In this document: positions 14,814-62,680 of the stretch, piece after piece
Position numbering within the stretch: position 1 is the stretch's first letter
Layout of the letters: each line of letters opens with the position of its first letter
Origin: a candidate division WOR-3 bacterium
GTDB taxonomy: Bacteria > Hydrothermota > Tepidihabitantia > SM23-42 > JAOAFX01
Direction of reading: 5' to 3'
DNA length: 64,000 bases
NCBI GenBank assembly: GCA_037444665.1
Contig: JBBILZ010000003.1
Span: 18,073 to 82,072 of the forward strand
Made by a program: the position numbers and the translations under genes
The notes under the pieces: generated by a model
Seen by the model: only the letters and a program-made list of their open reading frames with translations
Told to the model about the DNA's origin: nothing
Databases searched by the model: none

Positions 14814-15686
14814 TTATTTCAGAATTACTACTTTTTGAGTAAACGCCTCTGTTTGATTATCCAGGCGAATGAAGTAGACACCTTCACTCAATTTTCTCCC
14901 GGTTTCATCGGTTCCATCCCAAGTGAGTCTGTAGCATCCCTGCTCAAAGTTTCCATTTATGAATGATTTCACCTTCCGCCCGGTAATGTCATAAAGTGTG
15001 AGATTCGTAATTCCGGGAGAGTTAATCTGATAATAGATTTCCGCATTATCCCTCATAGGATTTGGCTTTATAGCAAGTTGTTCACCATTATTCCCAATAT
15101 TTACAACTTCCTGCTCTTGTGGACCGCTCTGCCCTTTTGGCTCTTGATAGATTACAATACTACTCAAAACCGCAAGTTCACCCTGCATTATCTCATCAGT
15201 GATTACAATTTCACCATCTTTAATAAATGCCTCAGGTATTATCCCTTCAACCACAGTCAATTCATCAGGATTCACCCAGACATTCCTTGTCCAGCCATTG
15301 TCAATCCTTATCTTCAATTTCTGCCTGCTGTTGAACTCGTGATAAAGAATAAACTTTATCCGATACTTAAAGCCGTCTTCAAATCCAGTAACCCGATAGA
15401 CGAGTTTTGTAGAATCATAGTCTACTGTCTTGTAGTCCTCAAGTCCATAGATAATAAAACCATCCCTTTCAATCGTATATTGTGATGGAATCTCGCTACC
15501 AAGCTCAATATAAAAGAAGAGCATTGGCTCGGGCAATAGTCGCTTAGCCTTACGCACCTCATAAAGCACACCATCATCCTCACACCAGATTGTAACAAGA
15601 TACCGGTTTGGTAAAGGAGGACCACTTGCAATTGTGACCTGGGGGGCATTTGAGGTATTGGGGGTGTTTGAGATATTCTCTGGCAT
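14814..15686 (-). CDS. ORF carrying a T9SS C-terminal sorting domain but no signal peptide; possibly the C-terminal part of 15690..18242
   Basis: It ends ...LYDITGRKVKSF...WDGTDETGRKLSEGVYFIRLDNQTEAFTQKVVILK. The N-terminus MPENISNTPNTSNAPQ is hydrophilic. The ATG is in the same frame as the upstream ORF, only one codon after that ORF's TGA, and it has no spaced SD. Confidence 0.55.
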   Translation of the reverse strand: MPENISNTPNTSNAPQVTIASGPPLPNRYLVTIWCEDDGVLYEVRKAKRLLPEPMLFFYIELGSEIPSQYTIERDGFIIYGLEDYKTVDYDSTKLVYRVTGFEDGFKYRIKFILYHEFNSRQKLKIRIDNGWTRNVWVNPDELTVVEGIIPEAFIKDGEIVITDEIMQGELAVLSSIVIYQEPKGQSGPQEQEVVNIGNNGEQLAIKPNPMRDNAEIYYQINSPGITNLTLYDITGRKVKSFINGNFEQGCYRLTWDGTDETGRKLSEGVYFIRLDNQTEAFTQKVVILK

Positions 15687-15689
15687 TCC

Positions 15690-19713: not shown

Positions 19714-19822
19714 GAGCTCATCAAGAGAGGCTGAGGGACGGGCCCTGTGACGCCTCGGCAACCGGTCCTTATTTAAGGATGTCCTGGTGCCAATTCCCGC
19801 CCGAATAGGGAGAGATGGGTGT
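19714..19822 (+). ncRNA. SAM-I (S-box) riboswitch
   Basis: The sequence gCTCATCAAGAGAGGCTGAGGGACGGGCCCTGTGACGCCTCGGCAACC...GGTGCCAATTCCCGCC...GAGAGATGGGTG matches the S-box core (AUCaaGAGaGG.GAGGGA.GGCCC..UGA..CC.GGCAACC ... GGUGCcAAUUCC) and has P1 closure. Confidence 0.9.
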
Positions 19823-19981: not shown

Positions 19982-21178
19982 ATGAAAAAAACTATTGATG
20001 AGATAAATGAAAAGATAAAAAAGGGTAAAGCAGTAGTCTTTACTGCTGAAGAGATTATTGAGGTTGCAAAAGAACAGGGGTTAAAAAACACAGCAAAAAA
20101 GGTTGATGTTGTTACAACCGGTACATTTGGTCCAATGTGTTCTTCTGGAGCATTTATCAATCTTGGGCATACCCGTCCAAGAATGAGAATTACCAGGGCA
20201 TGGCTCAATGATGTTGAGGTATTCTGTGGCATTGCCGCAGTTGACCTTTATATTGGTGCTACACAGATACCTGATAATGACCCGGCAAATAAAGAGCATC
20301 CTGGTAGATTCAGATATGGTGGTGGCCATTTGATTGAAGATCTGGTAGCAGGAAAAAAGATAAAGATAAAGGCACTCTCTTACGGCACTGATTGTTATCC
20401 TAAAAAAGAATTGACCGGTGAATTTACAATAAAGGATATCAATGATGCATTCCTGTTTAATCCGCGAAATTGCTACCAGAATTATAATGTGGCGGTCAAT
20501 CTTGGTAGAGAGAAAATTTATACTTATTTGGGTATCCTCAAACCGAATCTTGGCAATGCAAATTTCTGCTCTGCTGGACAATTGTCACCACTATTAAATG
20601 ACCCTGAGTATCTAACAATTGGCATTGGAACACGCATCTTCCTGGGCGGTGGTATTGGATACATTGCATGGCACGGCACACAGCACGACCCTTCTGTAGC
20701 AAGAAATAAAAATAGTGTGCCCAAAAGTGGTTCAGGAACCATTGCCGTGATTGGCGATTTAAAGACGATGAAACCCGAATGGCTCAGAGGAACATCAATC
20801 ATTGGTTATGGCGTAAGTTTGACCGTAGGCATTGGCATTCCGATTCCGATTCTTAATGAAGAAATCTTAAAATTTACCTGTGTAAAAGATAGCGATATAG
20901 TTGCGCCTGTTGTTGATTATTCATACGATTATCCGAATCTGACTGGTAGGGTCATTGCTGAAATAGATTATGCAACATTGAAATCCGGTAAGATACGCAT
21001 CGGAAATAAGACTGTACCAACATTTCCCATTTCCAGTTATCCAAAGGCGCAGAAAATAAGCAGGATTTTAAAGAATTGGCTCCAGACAGGTAAATTCCTG
21101 CTTACCGAGCCGGTTCAAAGACTGCCTGGTAAGGAATCAAGGATAAAATTCAGACCATTCCAGGGAAGGTATAAATAA
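19982..21178 (+). CDS. COG1900/DUF39 homocysteine biosynthesis protein (MA1821-like)
   Basis: N-terminus KTIDEINEKIKKGKAVVFTAEEIIEV...KVDVVTTGTFGPMCSSGAFINLGH is the characteristic DUF39 signature. The gene sits behind a SAM riboswitch. Confidence 0.8.
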   Translation: MKKTIDEINEKIKKGKAVVFTAEEIIEVAKEQGLKNTAKKVDVVTTGTFGPMCSSGAFINLGHTRPRMRITRAWLNDVEVFCGIAAVDLYIGATQIPDNDPANKEHPGRFRYGGGHLIEDLVAGKKIKIKALSYGTDCYPKKELTGEFTIKDINDAFLFNPRNCYQNYNVAVNLGREKIYTYLGILKPNLGNANFCSAGQLSPLLNDPEYLTIGIGTRIFLGGGIGYIAWHGTQHDPSVARNKNSVPKSGSGTIAVIGDLKTMKPEWLRGTSIIGYGVSLTVGIGIPIPILNEEILKFTCVKDSDIVAPVVDYSYDYPNLTGRVIAEIDYATLKSGKIRIGNKTVPTFPISSYPKAQKISRILKNWLQTGKFLLTEPVQRLPGKESRIKFRPFQGRYK

Positions 21179-25073: not shown

Positions 25074-25538
25074 TTAGAATAGGTTTTTTATAATTTCTGC
25101 AATCTTTTCAAGAAATTCTCTATCTTCGTCAGTAAATGGTGATAACATATGGGAATCAATATCAATCTCAGCCACGACTGTATCATCCTTGAATACCGGC
25201 ACAACAATCTCTGATTTTACAGTAGGACTGCAGGCAAGATAGTTTGTCTCTTTTGAGACATCCTGAACAACAAAGGTCTCTTTTTTTGCAACTGCCTGAC
25301 CACAGATGCCCCTGCCAAAAGGAATTTTGGTGTGCTCAGTTGGTGCACCTACAAATGGACCAAGATATAATTCCTTTGTTTTATTATCCGCAATGTAAAA
25401 TCCCACCCAGTTGTAGTATGGCACATTGGTTTTAAGGAGTGCACAGATTTTCAATAATTTATCTTCGTTCTTTATATTACTCTCTTCAATCTCTTTTATC
25501 TCTTTTATTAATCGCGCAAAAATCTTTTGTTTATCCAT
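25074..25538 (-). CDS. GAF-domain free methionine-(R)-sulfoxide reductase-like protein
   Basis: YNWVGFYIAD...LYLGPFVGAPTEHTKIPFGRGICGQAV...VVQDV...NYLACSPTVKSEIVVPV matches the fRMsr/YebR GAF family, including the Cys positions. Confidence 0.8.
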   Translation of the reverse strand: MDKQKIFARLIKEIKEIEESNIKNEDKLLKICALLKTNVPYYNWVGFYIADNKTKELYLGPFVGAPTEHTKIPFGRGICGQAVAKKETFVVQDVSKETNYLACSPTVKSEIVVPVFKDDTVVAEIDIDSHMLSPFTDEDREFLEKIAEIIKNLF

Positions 25539-27109
25539 TATGGCTTATATCTCAATGGGCATACCAGGCAACGCTTAGCCTCATTCTTTAAATCTTCAGC
25601 AGATGGAATCTCTTCCACGGGTCTGAAATCTTTAATTCGTTCCTGCGCATTACGGTGGAAGACCTTTAATCTTGGAATATTAACCATCTGCCAGTATTGT
25701 GGCTCTACTGGATAGATTGTGAATTTGAAATTAAACAGACTTCCCTTTAAGAACCTATCAATCTTTTTTGCAATCCTTATTCCATCACCCACTGCATGCG
25801 CCAGGGTCTGCGGACCCAGTGCTGCATCACCACCGGCAAATATTTTTGGATTACTCGTCCTTCCGTCCTTTGTGACGATACGGCACTGCTCATCAATCTT
25901 TATATAATCATTCAAAAAATCTGTATAAGGAACCTGACCTATTGCCGCAACAATCTTATCAACTTCTATTTCAAATTCTGAACCAGAAACAATCTCTACT
26001 TTACCTTTTCTTCCCTGAGGCGCACGGGTCTTTACCATCACAAGTTTTTTCCCTGCAATCTTTACTGGTGTGGTATATGGATAGACCTTTATTCCTTCTT
26101 CATCTGCTTCAGTCTTGTTTTCATCTTCTGCAGGCATATCCTCTATACCACGGCGATAATATATTGCAACCTCATTGCCACAGCGCAATAGACTCCTTGC
26201 TACATCAAATGCAGTATTACCGCCACCAATGACTGCAACTTTACCCAGCCTGATCTGCTCACCATTCTTTATCCGCTGTAAAATATCAAGACCAGAGAGC
26301 ACCTGCTCTTCACCTTCAATCCCGAGTCCTGCAGATTTGCCAGCACCCGAGGCAATGAAAATGGCATTATAATCAGTGATCAATTCTGCGAGATTGATAT
26401 CCTTACCAATCTCTACATTGGTCTTAATCTCAAATCCTGCCCTTTTTATCTGCTCAATCTCCTGTTCCACAATTGACCTTGGCAGACGAAATTCAGGAAT
26501 GTATGCAGATAAAACACCACCTAAAAATTTTTCTTTTTCATAGACCACGACCTGATAGCCGAGTTTACACAGTTCATACGCCGCAGTAAGTCCACAAGGA
26601 CCACCGCCAATGATTGCAACCTTTTCTTTTCTCTTCTCTTCAGCAACAACCGGTGGTTCGGTCTTTACCCCATGCTTCAGTGTGCGGATTGCTACAGGTT
26701 CATCAATACCCTTTCTGGTGCAGTTTATTTCACACGGTGCAGGGCATATCATACCCAGGATTTTAAAGAATGGAATAAAAGGATAATTTACTTTATTGGA
26801 TACAACTAAATTGATATAATACCAGGGTTTGACTTCTGCAGGACAATTTTTCTCGCAGGGTGGTGCAAAGTAGTTGACACCACGATATGCATCAAGAATA
26901 TTAAACAGATAGAATAGAATCCACGCAGCCAGAACAAACCAGAACCCAAAAGTCAATTTTATCCACAAGACCTTTGTCACAAGGATAGAGCCATAAAAGA
27001 CAATCATAAACCAGATACCGGTAATTATACGTCCTGAATAGATCTGACCACCACCAACAATAAAAATAGAAATGATTGATGCAATTAAATTCTTTTTATC
27101 TTGTGCCAT
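25538..27109 (-). CDS. GltD-like FAD/NAD(P)H oxidoreductase with Fe-S Cys motifs and an unusual N-terminal membrane (TM2-like) domain
   Basis: The N-terminus has 2-3 TM helices (IISIFIVGGGQIYSGR...). It is followed by CEKNCPAE and CPAPCEINC motifs, then the Rossmann motifs KVAIIGGGPCGLTAAYEL...VVVYEKEKFLGGVL and VAVIGGGNTAFDVA. Confidence 0.7.
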   Translation of the reverse strand: MAQDKKNLIASIISIFIVGGGQIYSGRIITGIWFMIVFYGSILVTKVLWIKLTFGFWFVLAAWILFYLFNILDAYRGVNYFAPPCEKNCPAEVKPWYYINLVVSNKVNYPFIPFFKILGMICPAPCEINCTRKGIDEPVAIRTLKHGVKTEPPVVAEEKRKEKVAIIGGGPCGLTAAYELCKLGYQVVVYEKEKFLGGVLSAYIPEFRLPRSIVEQEIEQIKRAGFEIKTNVEIGKDINLAELITDYNAIFIASGAGKSAGLGIEGEEQVLSGLDILQRIKNGEQIRLGKVAVIGGGNTAFDVARSLLRCGNEVAIYYRRGIEDMPAEDENKTEADEEGIKVYPYTTPVKIAGKKLVMVKTRAPQGRKGKVEIVSGSEFEIEVDKIVAAIGQVPYTDFLNDYIKIDEQCRIVTKDGRTSNPKIFAGGDAALGPQTLAHAVGDGIRIAKKIDRFLKGSLFNFKFTIYPVEPQYWQMVNIPRLKVFHRNAQERIKDFRPVEEIPSAEDLKNEAKRCLVCPLRYKP

Positions 27110-27890
27110 AACTTATCGCCTTTGTTGGACATTTTTTTACACAATCAAGGCATCTAATACAATCAATGTTATGTGGTGAATTTTGGATTGGCACATGCAT
27201 GGGGCAGACTGCCTGGCAGGAATCACAAGAAATACACTTTTCTTTATCTATTTTCATCTGAAACATACTGAATCTATTAAAGATTGAGTAGATTGCACCA
27301 ACCGGACAGAATGCACGGCAGAAGAATCGCTTAATAAAAATAGAAAAATTAATTATAATAATGAGTATTGCCATCTTTATCCAGAAGAGCCAGCCGACAA
27401 GTGCCTTTATATCACCGGTCTTATCTGCCAGCACAAGGGGAATTCCTGCCTCTATAAAACCTGCAGGACAGAGTTTACAGAACCAGGGCTCGCCTGATAT
27501 CCATGCGATGATACCTGCAATAACAATAAGCACTCCATATTTTATATAAGAGAAGAATTTTGGCATGCGCATCTTAAAGGTCTTTAATTTATAAATCAAA
27601 TCCTGGAACAGTCCGAATGGGCAGAGCCAGCCGCATGCCATCCTTCCTACTACAGTTCCAATGGCACCAAAGAATCCAGCAATATAAAATGGAATGAGAT
27701 GGAGATTAAAAAAATGTTGCAATGCGCCAATAGGACAGGAAAAGAGAGAGAGTGGACATCCCCAGCAATTGAGAATCGGAACACATCCTTGTTTTAAAGG
27801 ACCCTGATAAATTCCGCCCTGCCAGATTGCAGGATAATTTCCTAAGGTGATTGCTGAGGCAATGAACTGGACAATGCGTTTTAACTTCAT
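27096..27890 (-). CDS. NapH/MauN-like membrane polyferredoxin (4Fe-4S binding)
   Basis: Membrane CxxC-P motifs (GCPLSLFSCPIG, WLCPFG, CKLCPAG, FCRAFCPVG) plus C-terminal CISCDSCQAVCP and CIRCLDCVKKCP. The track starts at GTG 27917. ATG 27890 forms an ATGA overlap with the upstream small ORF and is the start preferred here. Confidence 0.7.
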   Translation of the reverse strand: MKLKRIVQFIASAITLGNYPAIWQGGIYQGPLKQGCVPILNCWGCPLSLFSCPIGALQHFFNLHLIPFYIAGFFGAIGTVVGRMACGWLCPFGLFQDLIYKLKTFKMRMPKFFSYIKYGVLIVIAGIIAWISGEPWFCKLCPAGFIEAGIPLVLADKTGDIKALVGWLFWIKMAILIIIINFSIFIKRFFCRAFCPVGAIYSIFNRFSMFQMKIDKEKCISCDSCQAVCPMHVPIQNSPHNIDCIRCLDCVKKCPTKAISYGTR

Positions 27891-28027
27891 TGTTGTAATC
27901 CCATGCAGGAAAGGCACATTACCGAACCTACAGTCTCGGTCTCAGTAAAATCACCTACCTTTCCCCCATAAATAATGCCGGCAATAAAAATGACCAGAAG
28001 AATCACAACCAAAATCATCCGCTTCAT
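27887..28027 (-). CDS. Small (46 aa) membrane protein with a C-terminal CxxC; not in the ORF track
   Basis: GGAGGT RBS, then ATG 28027..28025. Translation is MKRMILVVILLVIFIAGIIYGGKVGDFTETETVGSVMCLSCMGLQQ*. The stop overlaps the ATG of the polyferredoxin gene (ATGA). Confidence 0.5.
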   Translation of the reverse strand: MKRMILVVILLVIFIAGIIYGGKVGDFTETETVGSVMCLSCMGLQQ

Positions 28028-28117
28028 CTTACCTCCATTGAGAAAATAGGAATTCTTTCAACAAACTATGCCTTATAACAATACAGACCGCCATGCCCTA
28101 TGACCATAAACGATTCT

Positions 28118-29698
28118 TTAAAATATACTCGTCAGCACTGCCTTTACCCCACGAAAAGGCTCTTCAAATCTGCATACACCACCCGAGCATACAAGACCAC
28201 CCTTTTCACCACCAATCCTTAATCTCAGATTGTGCCTGGTTGTCAGGTCAAGGCTCAATTCTAACATGGGCCAGAATGTCTCTTCACCAAGTTTTGGGAT
28301 CAACCATTCAGGCACCCTATCCCTTTTTTCACCGCGTAGGGTTATCACAAATCTCTCTGGTTTACCAACAGATACGCTCAATGCACGGTCATTATATTTA
28401 CTTGTATCACTGGTGACTATGGTCTGTTCAATGCCTGCCTCTACAAAAAAGATTCCAAAGTCATATTGTAGTTCAAGATATGGCTTTGTTTCGGTCTTTT
28501 TCTGAACCGGCAATTCAATTCCCTGTTTAATAATATGGTCAACACCAAAGGTTATCTCTGATACTTCTGTAGGATGGGTTATTGCCTTTATCCCCTGTTC
28601 TAATACACCATCCATATTCTCCATCAGATAAAAGAGCTCTTTAAATTTATTCAGCTCAGGGTCATGTGTGGAGACCTTGTTGTTATCAATTTCCAGGGAA
28701 ATAAAATCCAATGGTGAGGCAACTACTGAAATGCCATAACCAATCTCATCAATCCCGCGATTTACTGAAATACCGGATTTAATTGGTGTAGGTGGTTCAT
28801 TATAACGATAACCAGCACCACCAAATCCCATATCTTTGTAATCAACATACTGGACAGAAACACCATAACCACTCAGACTCAAACTTGAAGTATAAAGATA
28901 ACCGTCGCCCCTTAACCTTCCTCCCACCACAGGTATTGTTCCCCAGTGCCTGCCATATTCAAAATAATTTTCCCATGGTCCAATCTTCAGATTCATACTG
29001 CCACCGAAGAGTTCGGTAAATGCCTTTGGTGTCAAATCAGTAATTTTGTTTATACGCACATACCGTGCACCAATATTTGTATTCAATCCAAAGTCATTTT
29101 TAAAATTCAAAAGTTTTGTCTCAAGATTAGCACCGCGGAGCTGGTCTGTAGTATCATTCTTAATCGTGTATTTCAACTCTTCAAAGAAGATATTGCGAGG
29201 TCTGCCAGTGACTAAACTAATCTGGCTTTTAAAGAGGTTTATATCTGCCTTAAGTCCGTATAATGAATTATCATTATTGAAGTCTTCATCAAGGAATTGA
29301 TTGAGGCACAGACCACGTCCAAATGTAGCATAGTATCTACCATAAAGAATACTTATTGGGTCTTTTTTATACTGGGCAGAATAGTCAATATAATACAATT
29401 TGTTGAGGGTCCGCAATGATGGGTCCCAGAAAAAGAATACGCCACGCAGGGTAATATCTTTATAATCAAGCGAAAGTTTTAATTTTTCTGTAATATGGTC
29501 TTTAAAATTTGTTGTATCCAGGCGGGAATCAACAAATAGCCAGTATTCAGCGCGGTTTGAACCGGTGATACGTAGTTCCTGGCCATTTATAAAAATAGGC
29601 AGAAAAAAGAGCAGAAGAATAAATCCAGAGTATCTGTTAGAAACTGAATTTTTTTTGGGGCTTGGAGTTTGGAAATTGGAATTTATTCTCTTATTCAT
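28118..29698 (-). CDS. Putative outer-membrane beta-barrel protein
   Basis: The start is moved to ATG 29698 (MNKRINSNF...), 2 nt after the upstream stop. Signal peptide ...GFILLLFFLPIFINGQ, alternating amphipathic strands throughout, and a C-terminal ...AVLTSIF (terminal Phe). Confidence 0.5.
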   Translation of the reverse strand: MNKRINSNFQTPSPKKNSVSNRYSGFILLLFFLPIFINGQELRITGSNRAEYWLFVDSRLDTTNFKDHITEKLKLSLDYKDITLRGVFFFWDPSLRTLNKLYYIDYSAQYKKDPISILYGRYYATFGRGLCLNQFLDEDFNNDNSLYGLKADINLFKSQISLVTGRPRNIFFEELKYTIKNDTTDQLRGANLETKLLNFKNDFGLNTNIGARYVRINKITDLTPKAFTELFGGSMNLKIGPWENYFEYGRHWGTIPVVGGRLRGDGYLYTSSLSLSGYGVSVQYVDYKDMGFGGAGYRYNEPPTPIKSGISVNRGIDEIGYGISVVASPLDFISLEIDNNKVSTHDPELNKFKELFYLMENMDGVLEQGIKAITHPTEVSEITFGVDHIIKQGIELPVQKKTETKPYLELQYDFGIFFVEAGIEQTIVTSDTSKYNDRALSVSVGKPERFVITLRGEKRDRVPEWLIPKLGEETFWPMLELSLDLTTRHNLRLRIGGEKGGLVCSGGVCRFEEPFRGVKAVLTSIF

Positions 29699-30260
29699 GG
29701 CACTTTTCCTTACAATCTCCTTTACAATCTTTACAGGTAACACATCTAACCTTTTTAACAATTATCTCTTCATCGCCAGGCTTATATCCCTGATGCACAA
29801 AGACAATTTTCTTACTCTGGTTAATAATGTAGCTCGTGGGCATTGCCTGAACATTATATAGTTCACGCAAAATATTGTCCGGGTCAAGAACAATAACATA
29901 TTTCCATTTGTGGCTCAATGCAAATGGTTTTACTTTTGGCACTGCCCTTGCCTTGTCCTGACTGATTGCCAGCATCTGCAGTCCAAGTGAGTCAAATTCA
30001 TCGTAGTACGCTTTCAAGGCATCAAGTTCTTTAATACACATCTTGCACCACAATGCCCAGAAACTCATAAAGACTGGTCCTTTTTTCAATAAAGAATCAA
30101 GACAGACAGTATTTCCATCAACATCCTGGAGTATAAAATCAGGGGCTGTAGGCAATTCTTTTTCCTGGGCATAACTTAAATTAAACAGAAAAAGGGCCGA
30201 TATAATACTAATCCATATTACTTTCGTATTTCGTATTTCGTATTTCGTATTTCGTTTCAT
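29691..30260 (-). CDS. TlpA/ResA-like periplasmic thiol:disulfide oxidoreductase with a Cys-rich tail
   Basis: Signal peptide, then the thioredoxin-fold motif VFMSFWALWCKMCIKELD. The tail is VRCVTCKDCKGDCKEKCHE. The N-terminal KRNTKYEIRNTK is encoded by (cgaaata)x4. The ATG overlaps the upstream TGA (ATGA). Confidence 0.8.
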   Translation of the reverse strand: MKRNTKYEIRNTKVIWISIISALFLFNLSYAQEKELPTAPDFILQDVDGNTVCLDSLLKKGPVFMSFWALWCKMCIKELDALKAYYDEFDSLGLQMLAISQDKARAVPKVKPFALSHKWKYVIVLDPDNILRELYNVQAMPTSYIINQSKKIVFVHQGYKPGDEEIIVKKVRCVTCKDCKGDCKEKCHE

Positions 30261-30973
30261 TTTGTATCCTCAAATTTTGTGCTTATTGTCTGCATCACCT
30301 CTTTTGTGTTTATGTTTTGAACAAGGACGGTTGCCCGTAATTTAGATGCCGGGATGCTATGGTTAAACTCAATATGTTGGATCAAACTATCGGGGTATTG
30401 TAGAACTACAGGAAATTCATTCAATGCCCGACATACACGATAGAATGTAGTATAGGAACCGGGCAAACTATCCTCGGTTACAGCAATGAATGCCTTTATT
30501 TCGCCTGGTGGTATCGTATCCGCAGCAACGATCTTTAGATTAAATCTTGCCTGCGAACCCTGGGTAAATGCACTATCAATATATAGATTGAAATAAGGTG
30601 TCTTTGTTCGCGCAAGGAGATAATGTTCTCTATAGACACTATCATAATTCGGCGGACTCTGCTCAAACACTGCATCGGTTCCATCAAAGACAATAAAAGG
30701 AACATCTAAACCCGTATTATAAAAATCCTCTCGTTCCTGTGCCTCAGGTATCGTATATTGTCCGTTTATATGATAACAAATAACCACGAGCGTATCTCCT
30801 GTTCTATTTGCCACACTATCAATAAGCGCCCGCTCCGCGAGCGCACAAAATCCTCAGCCATCCTCAGTAAACATCTCTGCCAGAACAATTCTACTTGTTG
30901 GTTCAGGAAAATTTAGTTTTGGTGCATCAGAACAGAAGATAAAAAATAAGGGAAGTATTATTAATTTTTTCAT
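30257..30973 (-). CDS. Candidate selenoprotein: thioredoxin-fold-like (Omp28-related-like) lipoprotein with UxxC, TGA codon 40 at 30856..30854
   Basis: Hand translation from ATG 30973 gives MKKLIILPLFFIFCSDAPKLNFPEPTSRIVLAEMFTEDG-TGA-GFCALAERALIDS-V(=track start 30814)ANRTGD... The frame is the same throughout. It is a paralog of 56858..57892 and 59968..60984 (shared (V/L)AEM/EEF...U..C and (I/V)TEDS blocks). Confidence 0.65.
30826..30844 (-). promoter_or_regulatory. SECIS-like hairpin 9 nt downstream of TGA 30856..30854
   Basis: On the minus strand, gcgctcgc-gga-gcgggcgc forms an 8-bp stem (one G.U pair) with a G-first loop. Confidence 0.55.
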
Positions 30974-52328: not shown

Positions 52329-54819
52329 ATATGTGCGAGGGGTTAAATAGATTTTTTGGCAGAAACTCATATCTTGGTTTCATGATAAAAATAAGTTTCT
52401 GCGAGTATGGCGATTGCCATATTATGGTCTTTGAAAATTTATTAGAATTGGCGGAAGGAACGTGGGTTCAAGTTACTAAGAGCGCATGTGAGGATGCCTT
52501 GGCATTCAGAGGCGATGAAGGGCGTGGTAGGCTGCGATAAGCGTCGGTGAGGAGCGAACATCCTTTGACCCGGCGATGCCCGAATGGGAAAACCCATCCT
52601 GTTGAAAAACAGGATATCCTGCTCGCAAGGACAGGAGGCTAACCAGGGGAAGTGAAACATCTCAGTACCCTGAGGAAGAGATATTCCGAAAGTAGCGGCG
52701 AGCGAAATCGGAACAGCCCAAACCGATCTGCATTTTAAAGCGGACAGGCGTTGTGCAGGCGGTGTAGCGAGGTCCAGCTGAACCTGATCTGTCCTGAAGG
52801 TTGTGAAGTTACAAAACCTTGTAATAGCCGAATCTCACAGGAAAGTAGAGCCATAGATGGTGATAGCCCAGTAGGCGAAATTACAAAGGTCTTCACTGGC
52901 TGGATTCTCAAGTAGCACGGGATAGGTTATCCTGTGTGAATCTGCCCAAACCACTGGGTAAGGCTAAATACTTCTGAATGACCGATAGTGCACCAGTACC
53001 GTAAGGGAAAGGTGAAAAGAACCCCTGGCGGGGAGTGAAATAGAACCTGAAACCATGCGCTTACAATCAGCAGGAGTTTAACTCCTACCTGAGCAATCGG
53101 GTGGGAAATGTTGAATGACTGCGTGCCTTTTGCATAATGAGCCGGCGAGTTATCCTAACCTGCAAGCTTAATTCTGGCATGAAAGTGTCGGAAGCAAGCG
53201 TAGGGAAACCAAGTCCAAATAGGGCGTATTAGTAGGTTGGGGTATTACCCGAAACCCGGTGAGCTACCCATGGTCAGGATGAAATTCCGGTGACACGGAA
53301 TGGAGGTCCGAACCGGTGACTGTTGAAATAGTCTCGGATGAACTGTGGGTCGGAGTGAAAGGCTAACCAAACCGGGTGATAGCTGGTTCTCCTCGAAATG
53401 CCTCTAGGGGCAGTCTTGGATGTTCAATAATAGTGGTAGAGCACTGAATAGAAGAGAACCCTTCGGGGTTCAAATCTAATCAAACTCCGAATGCTATTAT
53501 TTATAAGTCCAGGAAAGAGGCGGTGGGGGCTAAGCTTCATCGCCGAAAGGGGAATAACCCAGACCACCGGCTAAGGTCCCTAAGAGTTGGTTAAGTGGGA
53601 AAGGATGTGAGATGACTTAAACATCTGGGATGTTGGCTTAGAGGCAGCCATCATTTAAAGAGTGCGTAACAGCTCACCAGCCGAGTTATCTTGCGCCGAA
53701 AATTTATCGGGGCTCAAACCAACCACCGAAGCTGTGGCTTCCTGACCATTATGGTCAGGAGGGGTAGAGGAGCGTTCCATTGTAGGTTGAAGTTCTGTTG
53801 CGAAACAGAATCGACGAAATGGAAGTGATTATGCCGGCACGAGTAGCGATAATCCAGGTGAAAAACCTGGACACCGTAAGCCCAAGGGTTCCTGGGCAAG
53901 GTTAATCCGCCCAGGGTTAGTCGGATCCTTAGCCGAGGCCGAAAGGCGTAGGTGATGGGAAAGCCGTCAACATTCGGCTACCATCTGTAGTTTCGTTATA
54001 CCTATGGGGTGACGCTGATGGTAGAGGCGGTTCCTGTGTTGGAATACAGGATCCAAATACTTCATGGGAATTTCCTGGCAAATCCGGAAGTTCTTAACCA
54101 TGGAGTATGATGGGGAGGCCCAAAAGGCCATAAACCCGTCTCGAGATTCAGCCGAGAAAAACCTCTATGGAAGAAATTACGGGTGTCCGTACCGGAAACG
54201 AACACACGTGGGCGAGGTGAATATCCACAGGTGCTCGGGTGAACCCTTGTTAAGGAACTCGGCAATCTAACCCCGTAACTTCGGGATAAGGGGTTCCCGT
54301 TATCTGCTATGATGAATAGTGAATAACGGGACGCAGTGAAAGGGCTCTCGCGACTGTTTAACAAAAACACAGGTCTCTGCTAAGCCGTAAGGCAAAGTAT
54401 AGGGACTGACACCTGCCCGGTGCCAGAAGGTTAAAGAAGGAAGTTATTTTGGCGAAAGTCAGGAGAAGCTTCCGACTGAAGCCCTGGTAAACGGCGGCCG
54501 TAACTCTAACGGTCCTAAGGTAGCGAAATTCCTTGGCGGGTAAGTTCCGTCCTGCACGAATGGTGTAACGACGAGAGCGCTGTCTCAACAAGGAGCCCGG
54601 CGAAACTGTAGTGGCGGTGAAGATGCCGCCTACCCACGGTAGGACAAAAAGACCCCGTGAACCTTTACTGCAGCTTGCTATTGAATCTTTGCGGAGCATG
54701 TGTAGCATAGGTGGGAGGCTTTGAAGTTCCGACGCTAGTCGGAATGGAGCCGTCAGTGAAATACCACCCTTGTTCTGTCGGAGGTTCTAATTCTACCTTT
54801 GCAGGGTGGAAGACAGTGG

Positions 54820-55808
<989 letters not shown>

Positions 55809-55972
55809 CCCAAAATGTAACGGAGGTGCCCAAAGGTTCCCTCAGTGCGGTCGGTAATCGCACGGTGAGTGTAAGGGCATAAGGGAGCCTGACTGTGAGG
55901 CCGACAGGCCGAGCAGGCACGAAAGTGGGGCCTAATGATCCGGTGGTGCTGTGTGGAAAGGCCATCGCTCAG

Positions 55973-56008
<36 letters not shown>

Positions 56009-56034
56009 GGCCCGAGAGTTCACATCGACGGCCC

Positions 56035-56075
<41 letters not shown>

Positions 56076-56121
56076 GACAAGGTCCCAAGGGTCGGTCTGT
56101 TCGCCCGTTAAAGCGGTACGT

Positions 56122-56154
<33 letters not shown>

Positions 56155-56625
56155 ACTCTATCCACCGTGGGCGTAGGAGACTTGAGAGGAGCTGTCCTTA
56201 GTACGAGAGGACCAGGATGGACAGACCTCTGGTGCACGAGTTGTCGTGCCAACGGCATAGCTCGGTAGCCAAGTCTGGAAGGGATAACCGCTGAAAGCAA
56301 CTAAGTGGGAAACCCGCCTCAAGATAAGGTCTCCCGTTCAATTCAGGGGCAACTCTGAATTGACCTAAAGACTACCAGTAGACTACTGGTTTGATAGGCT
56401 ACAGGTGTAAGTGCAGTAATGCATTGAGCCGAGTAGTACTAATCAGTCGTGCGACTTGAACTTCCTTCCGCCATCTTCCTCTTAAGCACTAAATCCGAAT
56501 ATCGAAATACGAAACAATCTCAAAATTCTAAATTTAAATATTCAAAACGCTGTTTAAGATTTTGAATTTGGGTAATTAGAAATTGTTTCGGATTTAGGAT
56601 TTCGTGCTTAGAATTTCAAAAGATT

Positions 56626-56741
<116 letters not shown>

Positions 56742-56857
56742 TTTTTTTATTTAATGAATGTCAAGAACAAATAATAATCTTTTCCATAAACCCAAAAAAA
56801 TTTTCCCCCTTGACACAAAAGAATTTTTTAATATTATATATATAATAAAGGAGGAAT

Positions 56858-57892
56858 ATGAAATATTTAAAAATTATTGGGCTTTCTATATTAATATTAT
56901 CTTTGTTTAAATTTTCAAGTGGAGCAGAACGTGTTGTTGTTGCTGAAATGGTAACTGACGAGGGCTGAACCGCCTGTGGTGCAGCCAGTGGTACACTGGC
57001 ACAGATCGTTCTCAACCATCCAGGCAGGGTTGCAGCAGTTGATGTCCATTATCCAGCAGGTGATTCATTCTTTTTGCAGGAAGGATATGATCGTATCCAT
57101 TATTATCCACCACCATATTATGGAATGTATATTACACCATGGCTCTGGTATGATGGGAATCAACACGGTGAAATGGACTATACACAATGGGAATCAAAGA
57201 TTATTACAAGAATGAATCAACCAGCACCAGTAACCATATATCTTGATGGTGAATATTCACCGAGCAATAATTCAGGAACCATTTATGCTACATTCAAAAA
57301 CGATTCAAGCGCAACAATCACTGGCAGGGTAATAATTGTTATTACTGAAGATAGTCTATTCTATCCAGCACCCAATGGCACTATTTGGCATTCTAATGTG
57401 CCCCGTGATTATCTTCCTGATAATAATGGTACAAATGTATCAATTCCTGCGGGTGATTCAATAACAATCACTATGCCCTTTACAACCCATCCTAACTGGA
57501 ATAAAACACACTGTAAAATAAAGACCTGGGTCCAGAATGATATAATGCAATCAGATTCAACAAAAGAGGTCTGGCAGGGTGCATTGGTAAATTTGCTGGA
57601 ACTTGGTATCAATGAAGAATATCAGGAGAATACTAAGAGAATGAATATTCAGGTATACCCTAATCCTGTCAGACGCAATGGTTCTGTTCAATTTAATTTT
57701 GGTATCGGAACAAGCTATGAGATTTCAATTTTTGACTGCACAGGAAGGCAGATGGTCAAAATTAAAGGAAGTGCAGATATAATAAATTGGAATCTGAGAG
57801 ATGGCCATGGAATCTCAGTTAACCCTGGTGTATATTTTTACAAAATTCAATCCGAGAAATTTTTCACAAGTGGTAAGATTGTAATTGAATAA
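56858..57892 (+). CDS. Candidate selenoprotein: secreted thioredoxin-fold-like (Omp28-related-like) protein with UxxC and a T9SS C-terminal domain; TGA codon 37 at 56966..56968
   Basis: AAAGGAGG RBS, ATG 56858. Codon-by-codon translation gives MKYLKIIGLSILILSLFKFSSGAERVVVAEMVTDEG-TGA-TACGAASGTLAQIVLNHPGRVAAVDVHYPAGDSFF-L(=track start 57074)QEGYDR... There is no other stop. It ends ...PGVYFYKIQSEKFFTSGKIVIE. Confidence 0.7.
56984..57000 (+). promoter_or_regulatory. SECIS-like hairpin 15 nt downstream of TGA 56966..56968
   Basis: gccagtg-gta-cactggc forms a perfect 7-bp stem with a G-first loop. Confidence 0.6.
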
Positions 57893-57948
57893 AAAGGAGG
57901 TGCAAAATAAAGAGTATATTATTTGTTAAGAATGAAAAAGGAGGAACT

Positions 57949-59865
57949 ATGAGAATATTTTTAGCAACAATAATTGTGTTGAGCATTGCGAATGCAGGTA
58001 ACTGGTTGATTAATGGTGACTTTGAACAGGATTTATCTATGGGCTGGACCGCTACCCAGGGCGGCTCATATATCTATATCGACCGTGCCACGACCTATGA
58101 AACAGACCCTGATTATGAATTGCGCACAGAAAAAGGTTCTGGAAATGGGTTCGCTAATGTTTCACAAACCATTGATATTACTACACCCAGTGAATTCAAT
58201 TTTTCAATAAAGGCAAAACTCTATGCGTATGATAATAATGCAGATACACTTACCTATGCAGGTGCTGCAGTAAGAATAATTTATCGTAATACTTCAGGAA
58301 CTTTTTTAGGCGAAACCAAAATCTGTCAGTTTACTACACCCTGTCCATGGCAGAATACATCAACCTGCCATTTAATAATTGCGAGTGATTCATTGTGGCA
58401 TAATTATTCATTTAATCTCCAGGCCGAACTCGGTAATCTGCCCGGTGTCAATCCAGCAAATGTTAAAAAGGTTGAGATTGCTTTCTATGATACAACTGCC
58501 CATACTTGTTGAGGGGCTTCACAATTGGCGAAGGTCTTCGCCGATGATACCAAATTAAATTATACTGGAACGCAATTATATCTCAGTTTTATCAAATCCA
58601 AGGTCTACGATGCGGGTGGCAATAATAATGGTAGGCTTGACCCTGGAGAAACAGCGAACATCACTACATTTTTGAAAAATATTGGTGGTGCTAATTTTAC
58701 GAACTTAAACTCTACGCTCTCCACAACGAGTCCTTATATCACTGTTACAGATAATTCTGGTTATTTCGGCACAATTCTTATAGATAGCACAAAAGAGAAT
58801 ATTTCAGACCCTTATACAATTAGTGTGAGTTCTTCAACACCACAGGGACACACTGCACAATTCCGGCTCATCACCTCTCAAGGCACCTTTGTCGATACTT
58901 TTTTCTTTAATCTTGTGGTCGGCTCTTATCATTACTTAGTGTGGAATCCTGACCCAACATCATCACCAGGACAAACAATGCATAATATTCTTACTACATT
59001 GGGCTACAGTGGATTATATTCTACGACTCTTCCTACAACCGACCTTGGTATGTATCGGGCAATCCTTGTGTGTGTGGGAATCTTTCCGAACAATTATGTA
59101 ATAAGTGCATCAAGCCCAGAGGCTACGGCATTGGTAAATTATGCAAACAGTGGTGGTCGGCTCTATCTTGAAGGTGGTGATGTCTGGTATTATGACCCAT
59201 TGGTTGGTGGATATGATTTTTGTCCACTCTTCGGAATAAATGCTACTGCAGATGGTTCTTCTGATTTAGGACCCATTCAGGGACAGACCGGGACATTCAC
59301 AAATCAGATGTATTTCAATTATGCAGGAGAAAATAATTATATGGACTGGATAAGTCCTGGTGGAACCGGTGCCTTTTTGATATTCAAAGATGAAGACCAG
59401 GGGTATGATTGTGCTGTTGCCCGTGATGCAGAAACATATCGCACAGTAGGAACTTCATTTGAACTTGGAAATCTGATTGATGGTTCTGGTGTTTCAACCC
59501 GTGCTGCATTGATTGATTCAATACTACATTTCTTTGGCATCTTCCAGTTTCCGGTGGCTGAGGAAAATAAACGAAGTGATATTGCAATAAACAAACTGAT
59601 GGTCTATCCGAATCCATTCCATAAAAATCTTACGATTAAATCCGAAATTCGAAATCCGAAATCCGAAACATCATTGAGAATTTACGATGCCACGGGCAGA
59701 TTGGTGAAATCCTTTTTACTTCCTACTTCTCACTTCTCACTTCTTACTTCTGTGGAGTGGAACGGAACAGATGATTCAGGTCGTAAACTTCCATCTGGTG
59801 TATATTTTGTCCATCTGGAAGCAGGCAATCTAAAATATATTGACAAGGTGATAAAGATTGAGTAA
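57949..59865 (+). CDS. Candidate selenoprotein: secreted jelly-roll (CBM4/9-like) + large domain + T9SS C-terminal domain protein; in-frame TGA at 58510..58512
   Basis: ORFs 57949..58512 (signal peptide, no sorting domain) and 58525..59865 (sorting domain, no signal peptide, TTG 'start') are in the same frame. The junction reads ...VEIAFYDTTAHTC-TGA-GASQLAKVFADDTKLNY. The AKVFADD strand looks like the missing last strand of the NGDFE-type jelly roll. Confidence 0.6.
58527..58542 (+). promoter_or_regulatory. SECIS-like hairpin 14 nt downstream of TGA 58510..58512
   Basis: ggcgaa-ggtc-ttcgcc, or a 7-bp ggcgaag/cttcgcc stem. As I recall it, the GGUC apical loop matches the loop of the E. coli fdhF SECIS. 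Confidence 0.55.
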
Positions 59866-59967
59866 AATAAAAATAATAGGTTAGCCATTCTAAAAAAATG
59901 AAATTAAATCAAACAACGACAATTTCAGGGTGGCTAAACTATTGCAAATAAAACAAAAGGAGGTTCT

Positions 59968-60984
59968 ATGAGGTTAAGCATTTTTAGGTTTATGCTTTTG
60001 CTGGGCGTACTTATTTTGAGCATATCCAGTGCAGCACAGCGCGTGGTGCTATGTGAGGAATTTTATCAGGAGACCTGACCGAGCTGTCCTGCAGCCAGCA
60101 GTGTGCTGGACAATATTGTTATCCAATATTCAACCAGGATTGCACCAATAGAGATGCATTTGAGTTCAGGTTATCCACTCTATTCTGCAGAAGCTTATGC
60201 CAGAATGCAGTATTATCCAAGTTCAAACTGGTATACACCGAATCTCATTCTTGATGGAACGCCGCGCGGCAGTGGTTATACAAGCTGGCAATCCTATATA
60301 GTGGCAAGGATGAATCAGGCTTCACCAATGCGACTCTTAATGTGGGGAACTTATGGTTCTGGTTCAGGAACCATTAATGCGCGTTTTTATAATGATTCAA
60401 CTGCATCGGTAACTGCTACAGTCTATTTTGTTATTACTGAAGATAGTTGTTATTATGCTGCACCCAATGGTGACCAGTGGCACAATCATGTAGCAAGAGA
60501 CTATGTGCCTAATCAGATTGGCCAGCAGGTGACGATTCCTTCAGGAGATTCTGCAACAGTAGCTCAGTATTTTACAATCCAGTATGGATGGAATGTAAAT
60601 AGGTGTAATATTATCACCTGGATACAGAATAGTTCTACAAGAGAGGTATATCAAGCAGGAAAGATCAAAGTAACCGACCTTACCGCGGTGGAAGAGAACG
60701 AGCAGGATAATCTGGTGAAAAAAGAGATATTATCACTGCCTAACCCCTGTGTAAATGGAACAAAATTCCAGTTCAATATTGGTGCAGGAACACAATGGAA
60801 AATTATAATATTTGATGTTCTGGGTAGACCGATACAGCAGATTGATGGAATCGGTAATGCTCAAAATCAAATTGTAGAATGGAATCTCAAGGATAATAAA
60901 GGTAATCGTGTAAAGTCCGGTATCTATTTCTATCGGTTTATCAGTGCGGAATTGAATAGCACAGGAAAGATTGTTGTAAGATAA
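59968..60984 (+). CDS. Candidate selenoprotein: paralog of 56858..57892 with UxxC and a T9SS C-terminal domain; TGA codon 37 at 60076..60078
   Basis: AAAGGAGG RBS, ATG 59968. Translation gives MRLSIFRFMLLLGVLILSISSAAQRVVLCEEFYQET-TGA-PSCPAASS-V(=track start 60103)LDNIVIQY... It ends ...SGIYFYRFISAELNSTGKIVVR. Confidence 0.7.
60095..60109 (+). promoter_or_regulatory. SECIS-like hairpin 16 nt downstream of TGA 60076..60078
   Basis: ccagca-gtg-tgctgg. It sits at the position homologous to the 56984..57000 hairpin and differs by two compensatory pair changes. Confidence 0.6.
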
Positions 60985-61000
60985 AAAATATCTGCTTAAT

Positions 61001-61066
61001 AAAACGGCGTGGAGAACCCACGCCGTTTTATTTTTCAACTGTTTTCTGCCTGGCAGAAAACAGTTG
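61001..61066 (+). terminator. Two tandem strong hairpins between the converging protein operon and the 16S 3' end
   Basis: The first is aaaacggcgtgg-agaac-ccacgccgtttt followed by attttt (61001-61035). The second is caactgttttctgc-ctg-gcagaaaacagttg followed by attttt (61036-61066). Confidence 0.7.
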
Positions 61067-61113
61067 ATTTTTAAAATAAAAAAACTCCAGGGTATTGGGT
61101 CAATTTTTCTTTG

Positions 61114-62680
<1,567 letters not shown>

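Follow-up and report, generated by a model that had tools for sequence, protein, structure and literature searches.

The 64,000-nucleotide stretch of the candidate division WOR-3 contig JBBILZ010000003.1 analyzed here (hereafter the window) carries two paralogous genes, termed gene 1 and gene 2, each of which contains a single in-frame TGA that very probably encodes selenocysteine (Sec, U). Both are predicted to encode exported proteins composed of an Omp28-like thioredoxin-fold domain and of a C-terminal sorting domain (CTD) of the type IX secretion system (T9SS). Conservation of the TGA, Sec/Cys pairs with distant homologs, a covarying hairpin and the presence of Sec machinery in the lineage strongly support, at the level of sequence comparison, their assignment as real full-length selenoprotein genes.

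Organization of genes 1 and 2

The features of the two genes are as follows.

56848..56854, + strand: Shine-Dalgarno box AAGGAGG of gene 1 (read from the sequence)
56858..57892, + strand: gene 1, 344 amino acids plus stop, candidate selenoprotein with an Omp28-like thioredoxin fold and a T9SS domain at its C-terminus (translation, Pfam, NCBIfam)
56858..56926, + strand: predicted Sec-type (secretory) signal peptide of gene 1, MKYLKIIGLSILILSLFKFSSGA followed by E, with the cleavage site deduced (n-h-c pattern)
56966..56968, + strand: in-frame TGA of gene 1, codon 37, candidate U of UxxC (conservation, Cys in distant homologs)
56984..57000, + strand: SECIS-like hairpin of gene 1, gccagtg-gta-cactggc, 7 bp, loop GUA (sequence, covariation)
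57653..57889, + strand: sorting domain at the C-terminus of gene 1 (residues 266-343), T9SS type A (PF18962 and TIGR04183, each exceeding its cut-off)
59957..59963, + strand: Shine-Dalgarno box AAGGAGG of gene 2 (read from the sequence)
59968..60984, + strand: gene 2, 338 amino acids plus stop, candidate selenoprotein with an Omp28-like thioredoxin fold and a T9SS domain at its C-terminus (translation, Pfam, NCBIfam)
59968..60036, + strand: predicted signal peptide of gene 2, MRLSIFRFMLLLGVLILSISSAA followed by Q, with the cleavage site deduced (translation, junction conservation)
60076..60078, + strand: in-frame TGA of gene 2, codon 37, candidate U of UxxC (conservation, Cys in distant homologs)
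60095..60109, + strand: SECIS-like hairpin of gene 2, ccagca-gtg-tgctgg, 6 bp, loop GUG (sequence, covariation)
60739..60981, + strand: sorting domain at the C-terminus of gene 2 (residues 258-338), T9SS type A (TIGR04183 only, PF18962 being below cut-off)

In both genes the ATG is positioned 3-4 nucleotides 3' of the AAGGAGG box, and exactly one in-frame stop, the TGA at codon 37, occurs in a frame that is otherwise undisrupted. The context of this codon is RVVVAEMVTDEG-U-TAC (...VTDEG-U-TAC) in gene 1 and RVVLCEEFYQET-U-PSC (...YQET-U-PSC) in gene 2. The predicted signal peptides follow the n-h-c pattern, are devoid of a lipobox Cys, and end with ...SSGA/E in gene 1 and ...SSAA/Q in gene 2 (the slash marks the predicted cleavage site); the A-x-A/[QE]RVV junction is kept across homologous loci. 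At the other end, TIGR04183 reports the T9SS sorting domain with 41.6 bits in gene 1 and 39 bits in gene 2 (cut-off 23), and Por_Secre_tail (PF18962, cut-off 27) returns 33.8 bits for gene 1, above its cut-off, and 20.2 bits for gene 2, below it.

A previous reading of this DNA from its letters only (the sequence-only reading) had proposed that the two genes share a ribosome-binding site, a signal peptide-like N-terminus, a single TGA at codon 37 and a frame running into a T9SS domain, and every detail of this layout that was checked is correct. It had also stated that the program-made list of open reading frames (ORFs) holds only the post-TGA parts with TTG/GTG starts, and these starts are indeed placed at TTG 57074 in gene 1 and at GTG 60103 in gene 2. 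Likewise, its remark that conserved genes nearby end normally at TGA is borne out for DnaA, Prs, YceG/MltG and FTHFS: TGA is their true stop, since the Pfam profiles run to their last positions there. Because these housekeeping profiles are complete at TGA-ended C-termini, TGA is not reassigned genome-wide, and codes 4 and 25 are excluded.

Conservation of the TGA among homologs

The 120 best homologs returned by a search with gene 2, in which U was replaced by C, were examined, and most of those bearing a name belong to 'candidate division WOR-3'. All 120 are N-terminally truncated: they start after the TGA, cover ~63-87% of the query, and have annotated start codons that vary in position. 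Truncation just 3' of the TGA in 120 out of 120 records is the signature that gene callers leave at an unrecognised Sec codon.

Scanning one genome per GTDB species yielded 77 loci from 56 WOR-3/Stahlbacteria metagenome-assembled genomes (MAGs), five closed chromosomes included, in which the matches were extended upstream in frame. Three loci are cut short or N-masked, and in the 74 readable ones the TGA stands at one fixed column without exception, Cys being found there in none. They share a common pattern formed by a signal peptide, a β-strand RVV[VL][CAL]E.. and then TGA-x-x-TGY, and the protein sequence is conserved on both sides of the TGA (RVVVCEE.Y.E.-U-xxC-..AS.TL..I) down to ~35% identity. 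Alignment of homologs across the TGA, which the sequence-only reading had suggested checking, is thus observed, with the TGA itself retained. This conservation is far beyond chance. Because both the TGA and its flanking frame are conserved in 74/74 loci, sequencing error, pseudogenisation and independent downstream ORFs are excluded as its explanation. Runs of N in the fetched sequences of loci L015 (about 2700-2800), L069 and L072 fall on or beside the homologous UxxC/SECIS region.

Family assignment, Sec/Cys pairs and fold

Pfam assigns both proteins to Omp28 (PF11551) with 44.0 bits for gene 1 and 42.6 bits for gene 2, above the gathering threshold of 34.9. The best NCBIfam match of both is NF045500, 'Omp28-related selenoprotein', covering residues about 16-250, U site included, with 41.1 bits (gene 1) and 66.6 bits (gene 2), under the curated cut-off of 200; NF033782, 'Omp28 family outer membrane lipoprotein', returns 36.8 and 63.9 bits, under its cut-off of 150. 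Gene 2 also matches the whole DUF1223 profile (PF06764; 26.8 bits, E 6e-6), under the gathering cut-off of 30.7. NF045500 is the 'hypothetical protein GOS_C', with the motif UxxC, of a 2026 review of prokaryotic selenoproteomes (PMC13188914). GOS_C was reported by Zhang and Gladyshev in 2008 as having a thioredoxin-like fold, 74 Sec and 312 Cys sequences, and an element resembling a selenocysteine insertion sequence (SECIS; PMC2398784). The sequence-only reading knew of no account of this family as a selenoprotein, which is not correct at the superfamily level, NF045500/GOS_C having been on record since 2008. Since their scores are under the curated cut-off, genes 1 and 2 are set apart from the NF045500 equivalog and, judged by these profiles, form a distinct divergent branch of the wider Omp28-related selenoprotein family.

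Like NF045500/GOS_C, the two WOR-3 proteins have Cys homologs, the UxxC motif, the thioredoxin-like fold and a SECIS directly 3' of the UGA. In contrast with GOS_C, reported from marine GOS organisms, they belong to WOR-3/Stahlbacteria. They occur as several paralogs per genome, often beside selA-selB-selC, and bear a type A T9SS sorting domain. Like members of the Omp28 family (PF11551, NF033782; named after Porphyromonas gingivalis Omp28), they would be envelope proteins of an FCB-type lineage, but they differ from the Omp28 lipoproteins of NF033782 by their signal peptidase I-type signal peptide, the Sec in place of Cys, and the T9SS CTD. As in the bacterial thioredoxin-fold UxxC selenoproteins (thioredoxin-like, DsbA-like and peroxiredoxin-like; PMC2398784), Sec would take the place of the first, nucleophilic Cys of a CxxC located where helix 1 begins. 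The products of genes 1 and 2 are distinguished from these by the succession of a thioredoxin domain, an immunoglobulin-like (Ig-like) sandwich and a T9SS CTD, and by a predicted cell-surface destination.

A word-indexed search with a CxxC-substituted N-terminal profile of 51 columns did not return any close full-length or Cys form. An exhaustive hidden Markov model (HMM) search of 1.84 billion representatives reports 197 relatives at E <= 1e-30, and many of the more distant relatives in this search are full-length, with ~45 extra N-terminal residues. When 16 distant full-length homologs are aligned with the proteins of genes 1 and 2, 14 of the 16 have Cys at the U column, as CxxC, one has Ser (SxxS) and one has Gln, and the +3 column is occupied by Cys in 15/16, the exception being the SxxS variant. 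The question of a Cys at the U column, raised by the sequence-only reading, is hereby answered in its favor. These distant Cys relatives carry T9SS CTDs and also score below the NF045500 cut-off, and one distant cluster has a WOR-3 member under the JGI name 'thiol-disulfide isomerase/thioredoxin'. The Sec clade itself contains no close Cys form.

For P0294, a relative with Cys at the U column, AlphaFold (AF2) predicts (pLDDT 87.8) the thioredoxin topology, a β−α−β−α−β−β−α succession with the CxxC at the N-terminus of helix 1, followed by a β-sandwich and then by the CTD. The best PDB match of this model is 2axo (E 1e-9, TM-score on target 0.58), Agrobacterium AGR_C_4864, which we take to be the structural representative of DUF1223, with a thioredoxin-like domain plus a β-sandwich. 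The likeness to DUF1223 is found in both the whole-profile match of gene 2 and this model of a Cys relative, although we know of no CTD in DUF1223 proteins and of no selenoprotein among them. When the portion of gene 2 after the TGA was modelled with AF2, the thioredoxin region was of low confidence, and Foldseek returned generic tandem β-sandwich matches (such as transglutaminase and RbmA) for this model, which are uninformative. A PDB sequence search with gene 2 aligned a thioredoxin WCxxC onto U37 at a non-significant level (E 0.18).

The hairpin downstream of the TGA

The hairpin starts 15 nucleotides (nt) after the TGA in gene 1 and 16 nt after it in gene 2, in an identical codon register, and the two versions differ by two compensatory pair changes. 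The loop G of gene 1 lies 23 nt after the UGA. The sequence-only reading had described these positions, the register and the two changes, as well as a G-first loop ~23 nt after UGA as in bacterial SECIS elements; all are found as described, and the covariation now extends to 76 sequences. With numbering from the U of UGA, nt 26-28 form the loop in the Omp28-like family, with the sequence G-[G/U]-N.

In the ungapped alignment of these 76 sequences (helix columns 25-31/35-41), the helix is paired at 87%, as compared with 18-42% in slid registers, and none of 500 column shuffles used as a control matched the observed covariation score or the number of double changes. The pair carrying the most information links the third positions of two codons (a Ser AGY codon and the next-but-one codon) and is distributed as CG:37, UA:31, UG:5 and other:3, and the neighbouring pair counts GC:38 and AU:19. 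Four Cys-encoding relatives (TGT/TGC), whose DNA was fetched as a control, form 3-4 of the 7 pairs in the hairpin register, as against 6-7 of 7 in 63 of the 76 Sec forms. In this comparison, the hairpin tracks the TGA and is lost in the Cys forms.

The E. coli fdhF SECIS likewise lies within the coding region, as a hairpin immediately downstream of the UGA whose apical loop has G/U. Its GGUC loop occupies nt 22-25 in the MG1655 sequence, as compared with nt 26-28 for the loop of the Omp28-like family. The WOR-3 candidates differ from it by their shorter stems (6-8 bp) and by having no obvious bulged U.

Selenocysteine machinery in the lineage

ARAGORN reports tRNA-Sec genes (anticodon TCA) in four of the fetched flanks, those of L018, L036, L039 and L065, and Rfam RF01852 confirms them with 70-77 bits (gathering score 47). 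They represent four of the ~twelve tRNA genes present in all fetched flanks, and that of L039 is located 163 nt downstream of the family gene. With E. coli SelA, SelB and SelD as queries, tblastn identifies selA and selB adjoining family members in L018, L036, L041 and L065, selA in L008, selB in L038, and selD in L020. Altogether, sel genes lie within 10 kb of Omp28-like genes in eight loci from six genomes, often immediately adjacent, and CP070834.1 carries selB and selD. L018 belongs to the MAG JBBINQ01, in which selA, selB and tRNA-Sec stand beside a paralog, and another contig of this MAG, L001, is syntenic with positions 56.1-64 kb of the window at 92-96% nucleotide identity, with the same arrangement 23S-5S-gene1-middle-gene2-16S. 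The lineage, its nearest available relative included, has the Sec machinery.

Two further families of candidate selenoproteins

The gene located between genes 1 and 2 (hereafter the middle gene) comprises the following features.

57949..59865, + strand: middle gene, with a signal peptide, a weak CBM_4_9-like N-terminal domain that ends in ...HTC-U-GAS..., two unassigned domains and a T9SS CTD (translation, Pfam, NCBIfam)
58510..58512, + strand: in-frame TGA of the middle gene, codon 188, in a C-U motif, ...TTAHTC-U-GASQLAKVF... (conserved in homologs)
58527..58542, + strand: SECIS-like hairpin of the middle gene, GGCGAA-GGUC-UUCGCC (sequence, homologs)

Its TGA is kept in ~32 homologs, with local motifs C-U-G, C-U-S..C, G-U-G and D-U-G, and most of the listed homologs are annotated as N-terminally truncated. 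The GGUC loop of the hairpin, identical to that of the E. coli fdhF SECIS, is invariant at nt 24-27 from the U of UGA, and the stem shows double changes in four pairs, some of which alter the encoded residues together (AKVFA, AEVSA, ARVLA). Apart from the weak CBM_4_9 hit, the 530 N-terminal residues did not return any Pfam, NCBIfam or PDB sequence match. The middle gene, which the sequence-only reading had overlooked, is thus a T9SS-tagged selenoprotein candidate of a second family, and in 27 of 78 loci an Omp28-like gene is likewise followed by a middle-type gene. The single database entry of this family that seems to be full-length, P0129 (JGI), reads 'W' at the Sec site; decoding as Trp was considered and rejected, the DNA having TGA translated with code 4. 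A middle-family paralog in L022 (4335..5303, - strand) contains an additional in-frame TGA close to the N-terminus (...PLSDG-U-SQTING...), and the hairpin typical of the family is missing there.

A fourth candidate gene, of a third family, is encoded on the opposite strand, at the head of a run of genes.

30257..30973, - strand: candidate lipoprotein-type thioredoxin-like UxxC selenoprotein gene, devoid of a CTD (in-frame TGA, hairpin, homologs)
30854..30856, - strand: in-frame TGA of this gene (conserved in at least 20 loci)
30826..30844, - strand: hairpin of this gene (sequence, covariation)
29691..30257, - strand: TlpA/AhpC-type redoxin (after the lipoprotein-type gene)
28118..29761, - strand: DUF6029 protein (same run of genes)
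27096..27917, - strand: membrane polyferredoxin (same run of genes)
25538..27109, - strand: NAD(P)H pyridine-nucleotide-disulfide oxidoreductase, with a weak NCBIfam 'diclust_near_Sec' match (same run of genes)

The encoded protein possesses a lipoprotein-type signal peptide followed by SRIVLAEMFTEDG-U-GFC (...AEMFTEDG-U-GFC...), and Pfam does not report any match for it. The hairpin, GCGCUCGC-GGA-GCGGGCGC, starts 9 nt after the UGA. At least 20 WOR-3 loci have retained both the TGA and a covarying hairpin, and the single Cys form of this family (L032, TGT) is without the hairpin. In many other genomes, the lipoprotein-type gene is found directly 3' of a middle-type gene. In the window, it belongs to an operon-like run (25074..30973, - strand) that comprises the lipoprotein selenoprotein candidate, the redoxin, the DUF6029 protein, the polyferredoxin, the oxidoreductase and a GAF protein, and that may constitute an electron supply route to the envelope. 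In L083, a Cys-form Omp28-like gene is followed by redoxin and DUF6029 genes. The C-U and lipoprotein UxxC families have probably not been described as selenoprotein families.

Other features of the window

The window has a G+C content of 39%. Another of its genes with an in-frame TGA (TGA 15690-15692) is a T9SS cargo frame of 1141 codons with a HEYGH motif (14814..18242, - strand), for which Pfam reports no match in the first 850 amino acids. Its homolog in L047 (28% identity) has TGG at the TGA column. A further Sec codon was considered there and rejected, the TGA aligning with this Trp and having neither a hairpin nor a nearby Cys; it is probably a nonsense mutation, a strain variant or an error. 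Other TGA-interrupted frames in the window, inspected by eye, do not look coding, except for 30257..30973.

The rRNA genes (52466..62680) do not form one operon: the + strand carries 23S and 5S, and the - strand carries 16S (61114..62680). Between 5S and 16S stand the three candidate selenoprotein genes, a layout common to L001 and partly to L002 and L005. The 23S rRNA gene is ~4.0 kb long (52466..56463, + strand) and contains a group I intron (54841..55131; Rfam, 90.8 bits), beside which lies an ORF for a LAGLIDADG homing endonuclease (55167..55805; PF03161, E 7e-51). A SAM riboswitch (19715..19821, + strand; 78 bits) is located upstream of gene 19982..21178 (+ strand), whose product shows a weak likeness to 'methanogenesis marker 16 metalloprotein' (TIGR03287, below cut-off).

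Alternative explanations

Were the TGAs of genes 1 and 2 ordinary stops, each gene would yield a 36-residue peptide and a separate downstream protein starting from TTG, GTG or ATG, as the ORF list and the 120/120 database entries that start past the TGA would have it. However, the downstream parts are without a signal peptide of their own and yet end in a T9SS domain that requires prior export through the secretory pathway, the annotated start codons are not conserved in position, the amino-acid sequence is conserved in frame across the TGA in 74 loci, CxxC-type motif included, and the Cys-containing relatives are single full-length proteins, so that this explanation appears very improbable. 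Sequencing or assembly errors and inactivating mutations are hardly credible at all: gene 14814..18242 does provide an example of a TGA resembling a nonsense mutation or error within the same window, but in genes 1 and 2 no other disruption of the frame exists, and independent assemblies of 56 genomes agree on TGA at this codon. Reading of the UGA through other means than Sec, either by near-cognate insertion of Trp or Cys or by a lineage-wide reassignment of the type of codes 4 and 25, deserves slightly more credit and is still improbable. SelB-independent read-through under selenium limitation is known in other bacteria, and the JGI translation of P0129 has W at the site of the middle gene. 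This W is a code-4 artefact, however, and housekeeping genes stop at TGA, tRNA-Sec, selA and selB adjoin family members, the hairpin accompanies the TGA and disappears from Cys forms, and the relatives have a catalytic Cys at that residue, which is the standard Sec/Cys relationship.

A different objection accepts the Sec residues and questions the surface oxidoreductase activity: the proteins could be periplasmic folding catalysts of T9SS cargo, binders of chalcogens or metal(loid)s, or structural surface proteins with a static selenylsulfide. The C-U dipeptide of the middle protein could be a substrate or partner, and the window has arsenic genes, among them ACR3, at other positions, which would fit such roles. 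On the other hand, a UxxC/CxxC at the N-terminus of helix 1 of a thioredoxin fold is the canonical oxidoreductase site, and TlpA/AhpC-type redoxin genes adjoin relatives (29691..30257 in the window, and L083). We regard these other roles as a real possibility, though not the favored one.

Several points also weigh against Sec decoding and surface redox activity as proposed here. Two of the seven hairpin pairs are invariant, hence uninformative, and part of the complementarity is forced by the conserved Ala-Ser...Leu codons; because of this partial constraint by the codons, the case for the hairpin is carried by the third-position pair and its neighbour, and 2-4 pairs in total are informative. 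The stems are short (6-7 bp), and folding energies of single sequences are unremarkable (z = -1.0 to -1.7 versus shuffles). Rfam reports no SECIS family, either at the gathering threshold over the whole window or at a permissive E-value over 56800..61050; to our knowledge, Rfam is devoid of a general bacterial SECIS model, in which case this null result is uninformative. The 64-kb window contains neither selA, selB or selD nor tRNA-Sec, its sole tRNA being that for Gln, so that the machinery of this exact genome is deduced from the sister MAG. The sel genes and tRNA-Sec that the sequence-only reading had proposed to look for are thus present in WOR-3 genomes, including this sister MAG, and missing from the window itself. 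Finally, the evidence for a redox function consists of motif and fold, and that for the status of T9SS cargo consists of the sorting domain.

Proposed function

With selenocysteine as the preferred reading of both TGAs, the UGA at codon 37 would be decoded by SelB with Sec-tRNA(Sec), directed by the hairpin in the coding sequence. The product would comprise, in order, the signal peptide, the thioredoxin-fold domain with U-x-x-C at the start of helix 1, the Ig-like β-sandwich, which together with the former would constitute an Omp28/DUF1223-like unit, and the type A T9SS CTD. Following export to the periplasm by the secretory pathway, signal peptidase would leave the redox center ~13 residues from the new N-terminus, and the CTD would route the protein via the T9SS to the cell surface, on which type A cargo is usually anchored. 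No T9SS machinery genes (PorU/V, Sov, PorK-N) are found among the scanned ORFs of the window, in which no search aimed at them was made. The U-x-x-C center would then act as a thiol/selenol-disulfide oxidoreductase at the surface or in the periplasm, a function that motif and model support moderately. Partnership with the C-U protein candidate, encoded between the paralogs and presumably co-transcribed, is probable, and the recurrent clustering with the C-U and lipoprotein UxxC genes and, at some loci, with genes for redoxins and electron transfer may reflect a redox relay in the envelope.

On a wider scale, WOR-3/Stahlbacteria may possess a dedicated selenium redox system of the envelope or surface, an idea to which we would give a little less than an even chance. 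It would consist of a recurrent module of three exported selenoproteins, namely the Omp28-like UxxC protein (T9SS tag), the CBM-like C-U protein (T9SS tag) and the lipoprotein-type UxxC protein, often linked to selA-selB-tRNA-Sec, with Sec kept without exception within the clade and with the last two families absent from current catalogues.

Significance

A literature search returned no paper linking a T9SS sorting domain with Sec, or Omp28 with a selenoprotein, and none relevant to selenocysteine in WOR-3. The sequence-only reading had called Sec in T9SS-routed proteins unusual; the T9SS-sorted form indeed seems unreported, but exported selenoproteins as such have precedent. Genes 1 and 2 involve no new principle, but they are clean and consistently mis-annotated exported selenoprotein genes with unusual sorting and linkage. 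If the assignment is true, no selenoprotein would, as far as the literature search shows, have been attributed to type IX secretion before their products. The C-U and lipoprotein UxxC families provide internal controls, in the form of covarying hairpins and of hairpin loss in a Cys form, and the linkage to selAB-selC offers natural SECIS variants of one lineage for studies of SelB recognition. Because the public records inspected truncate these genes, and one reads the codon as Trp, the selenoproteomes and surface proteomes of WOR-3 appear to be systematically under-called, and the two genes would, if correctly interpreted, bring selenocysteine chemistry to the cell surface in an anaerobic phylum without cultured members.

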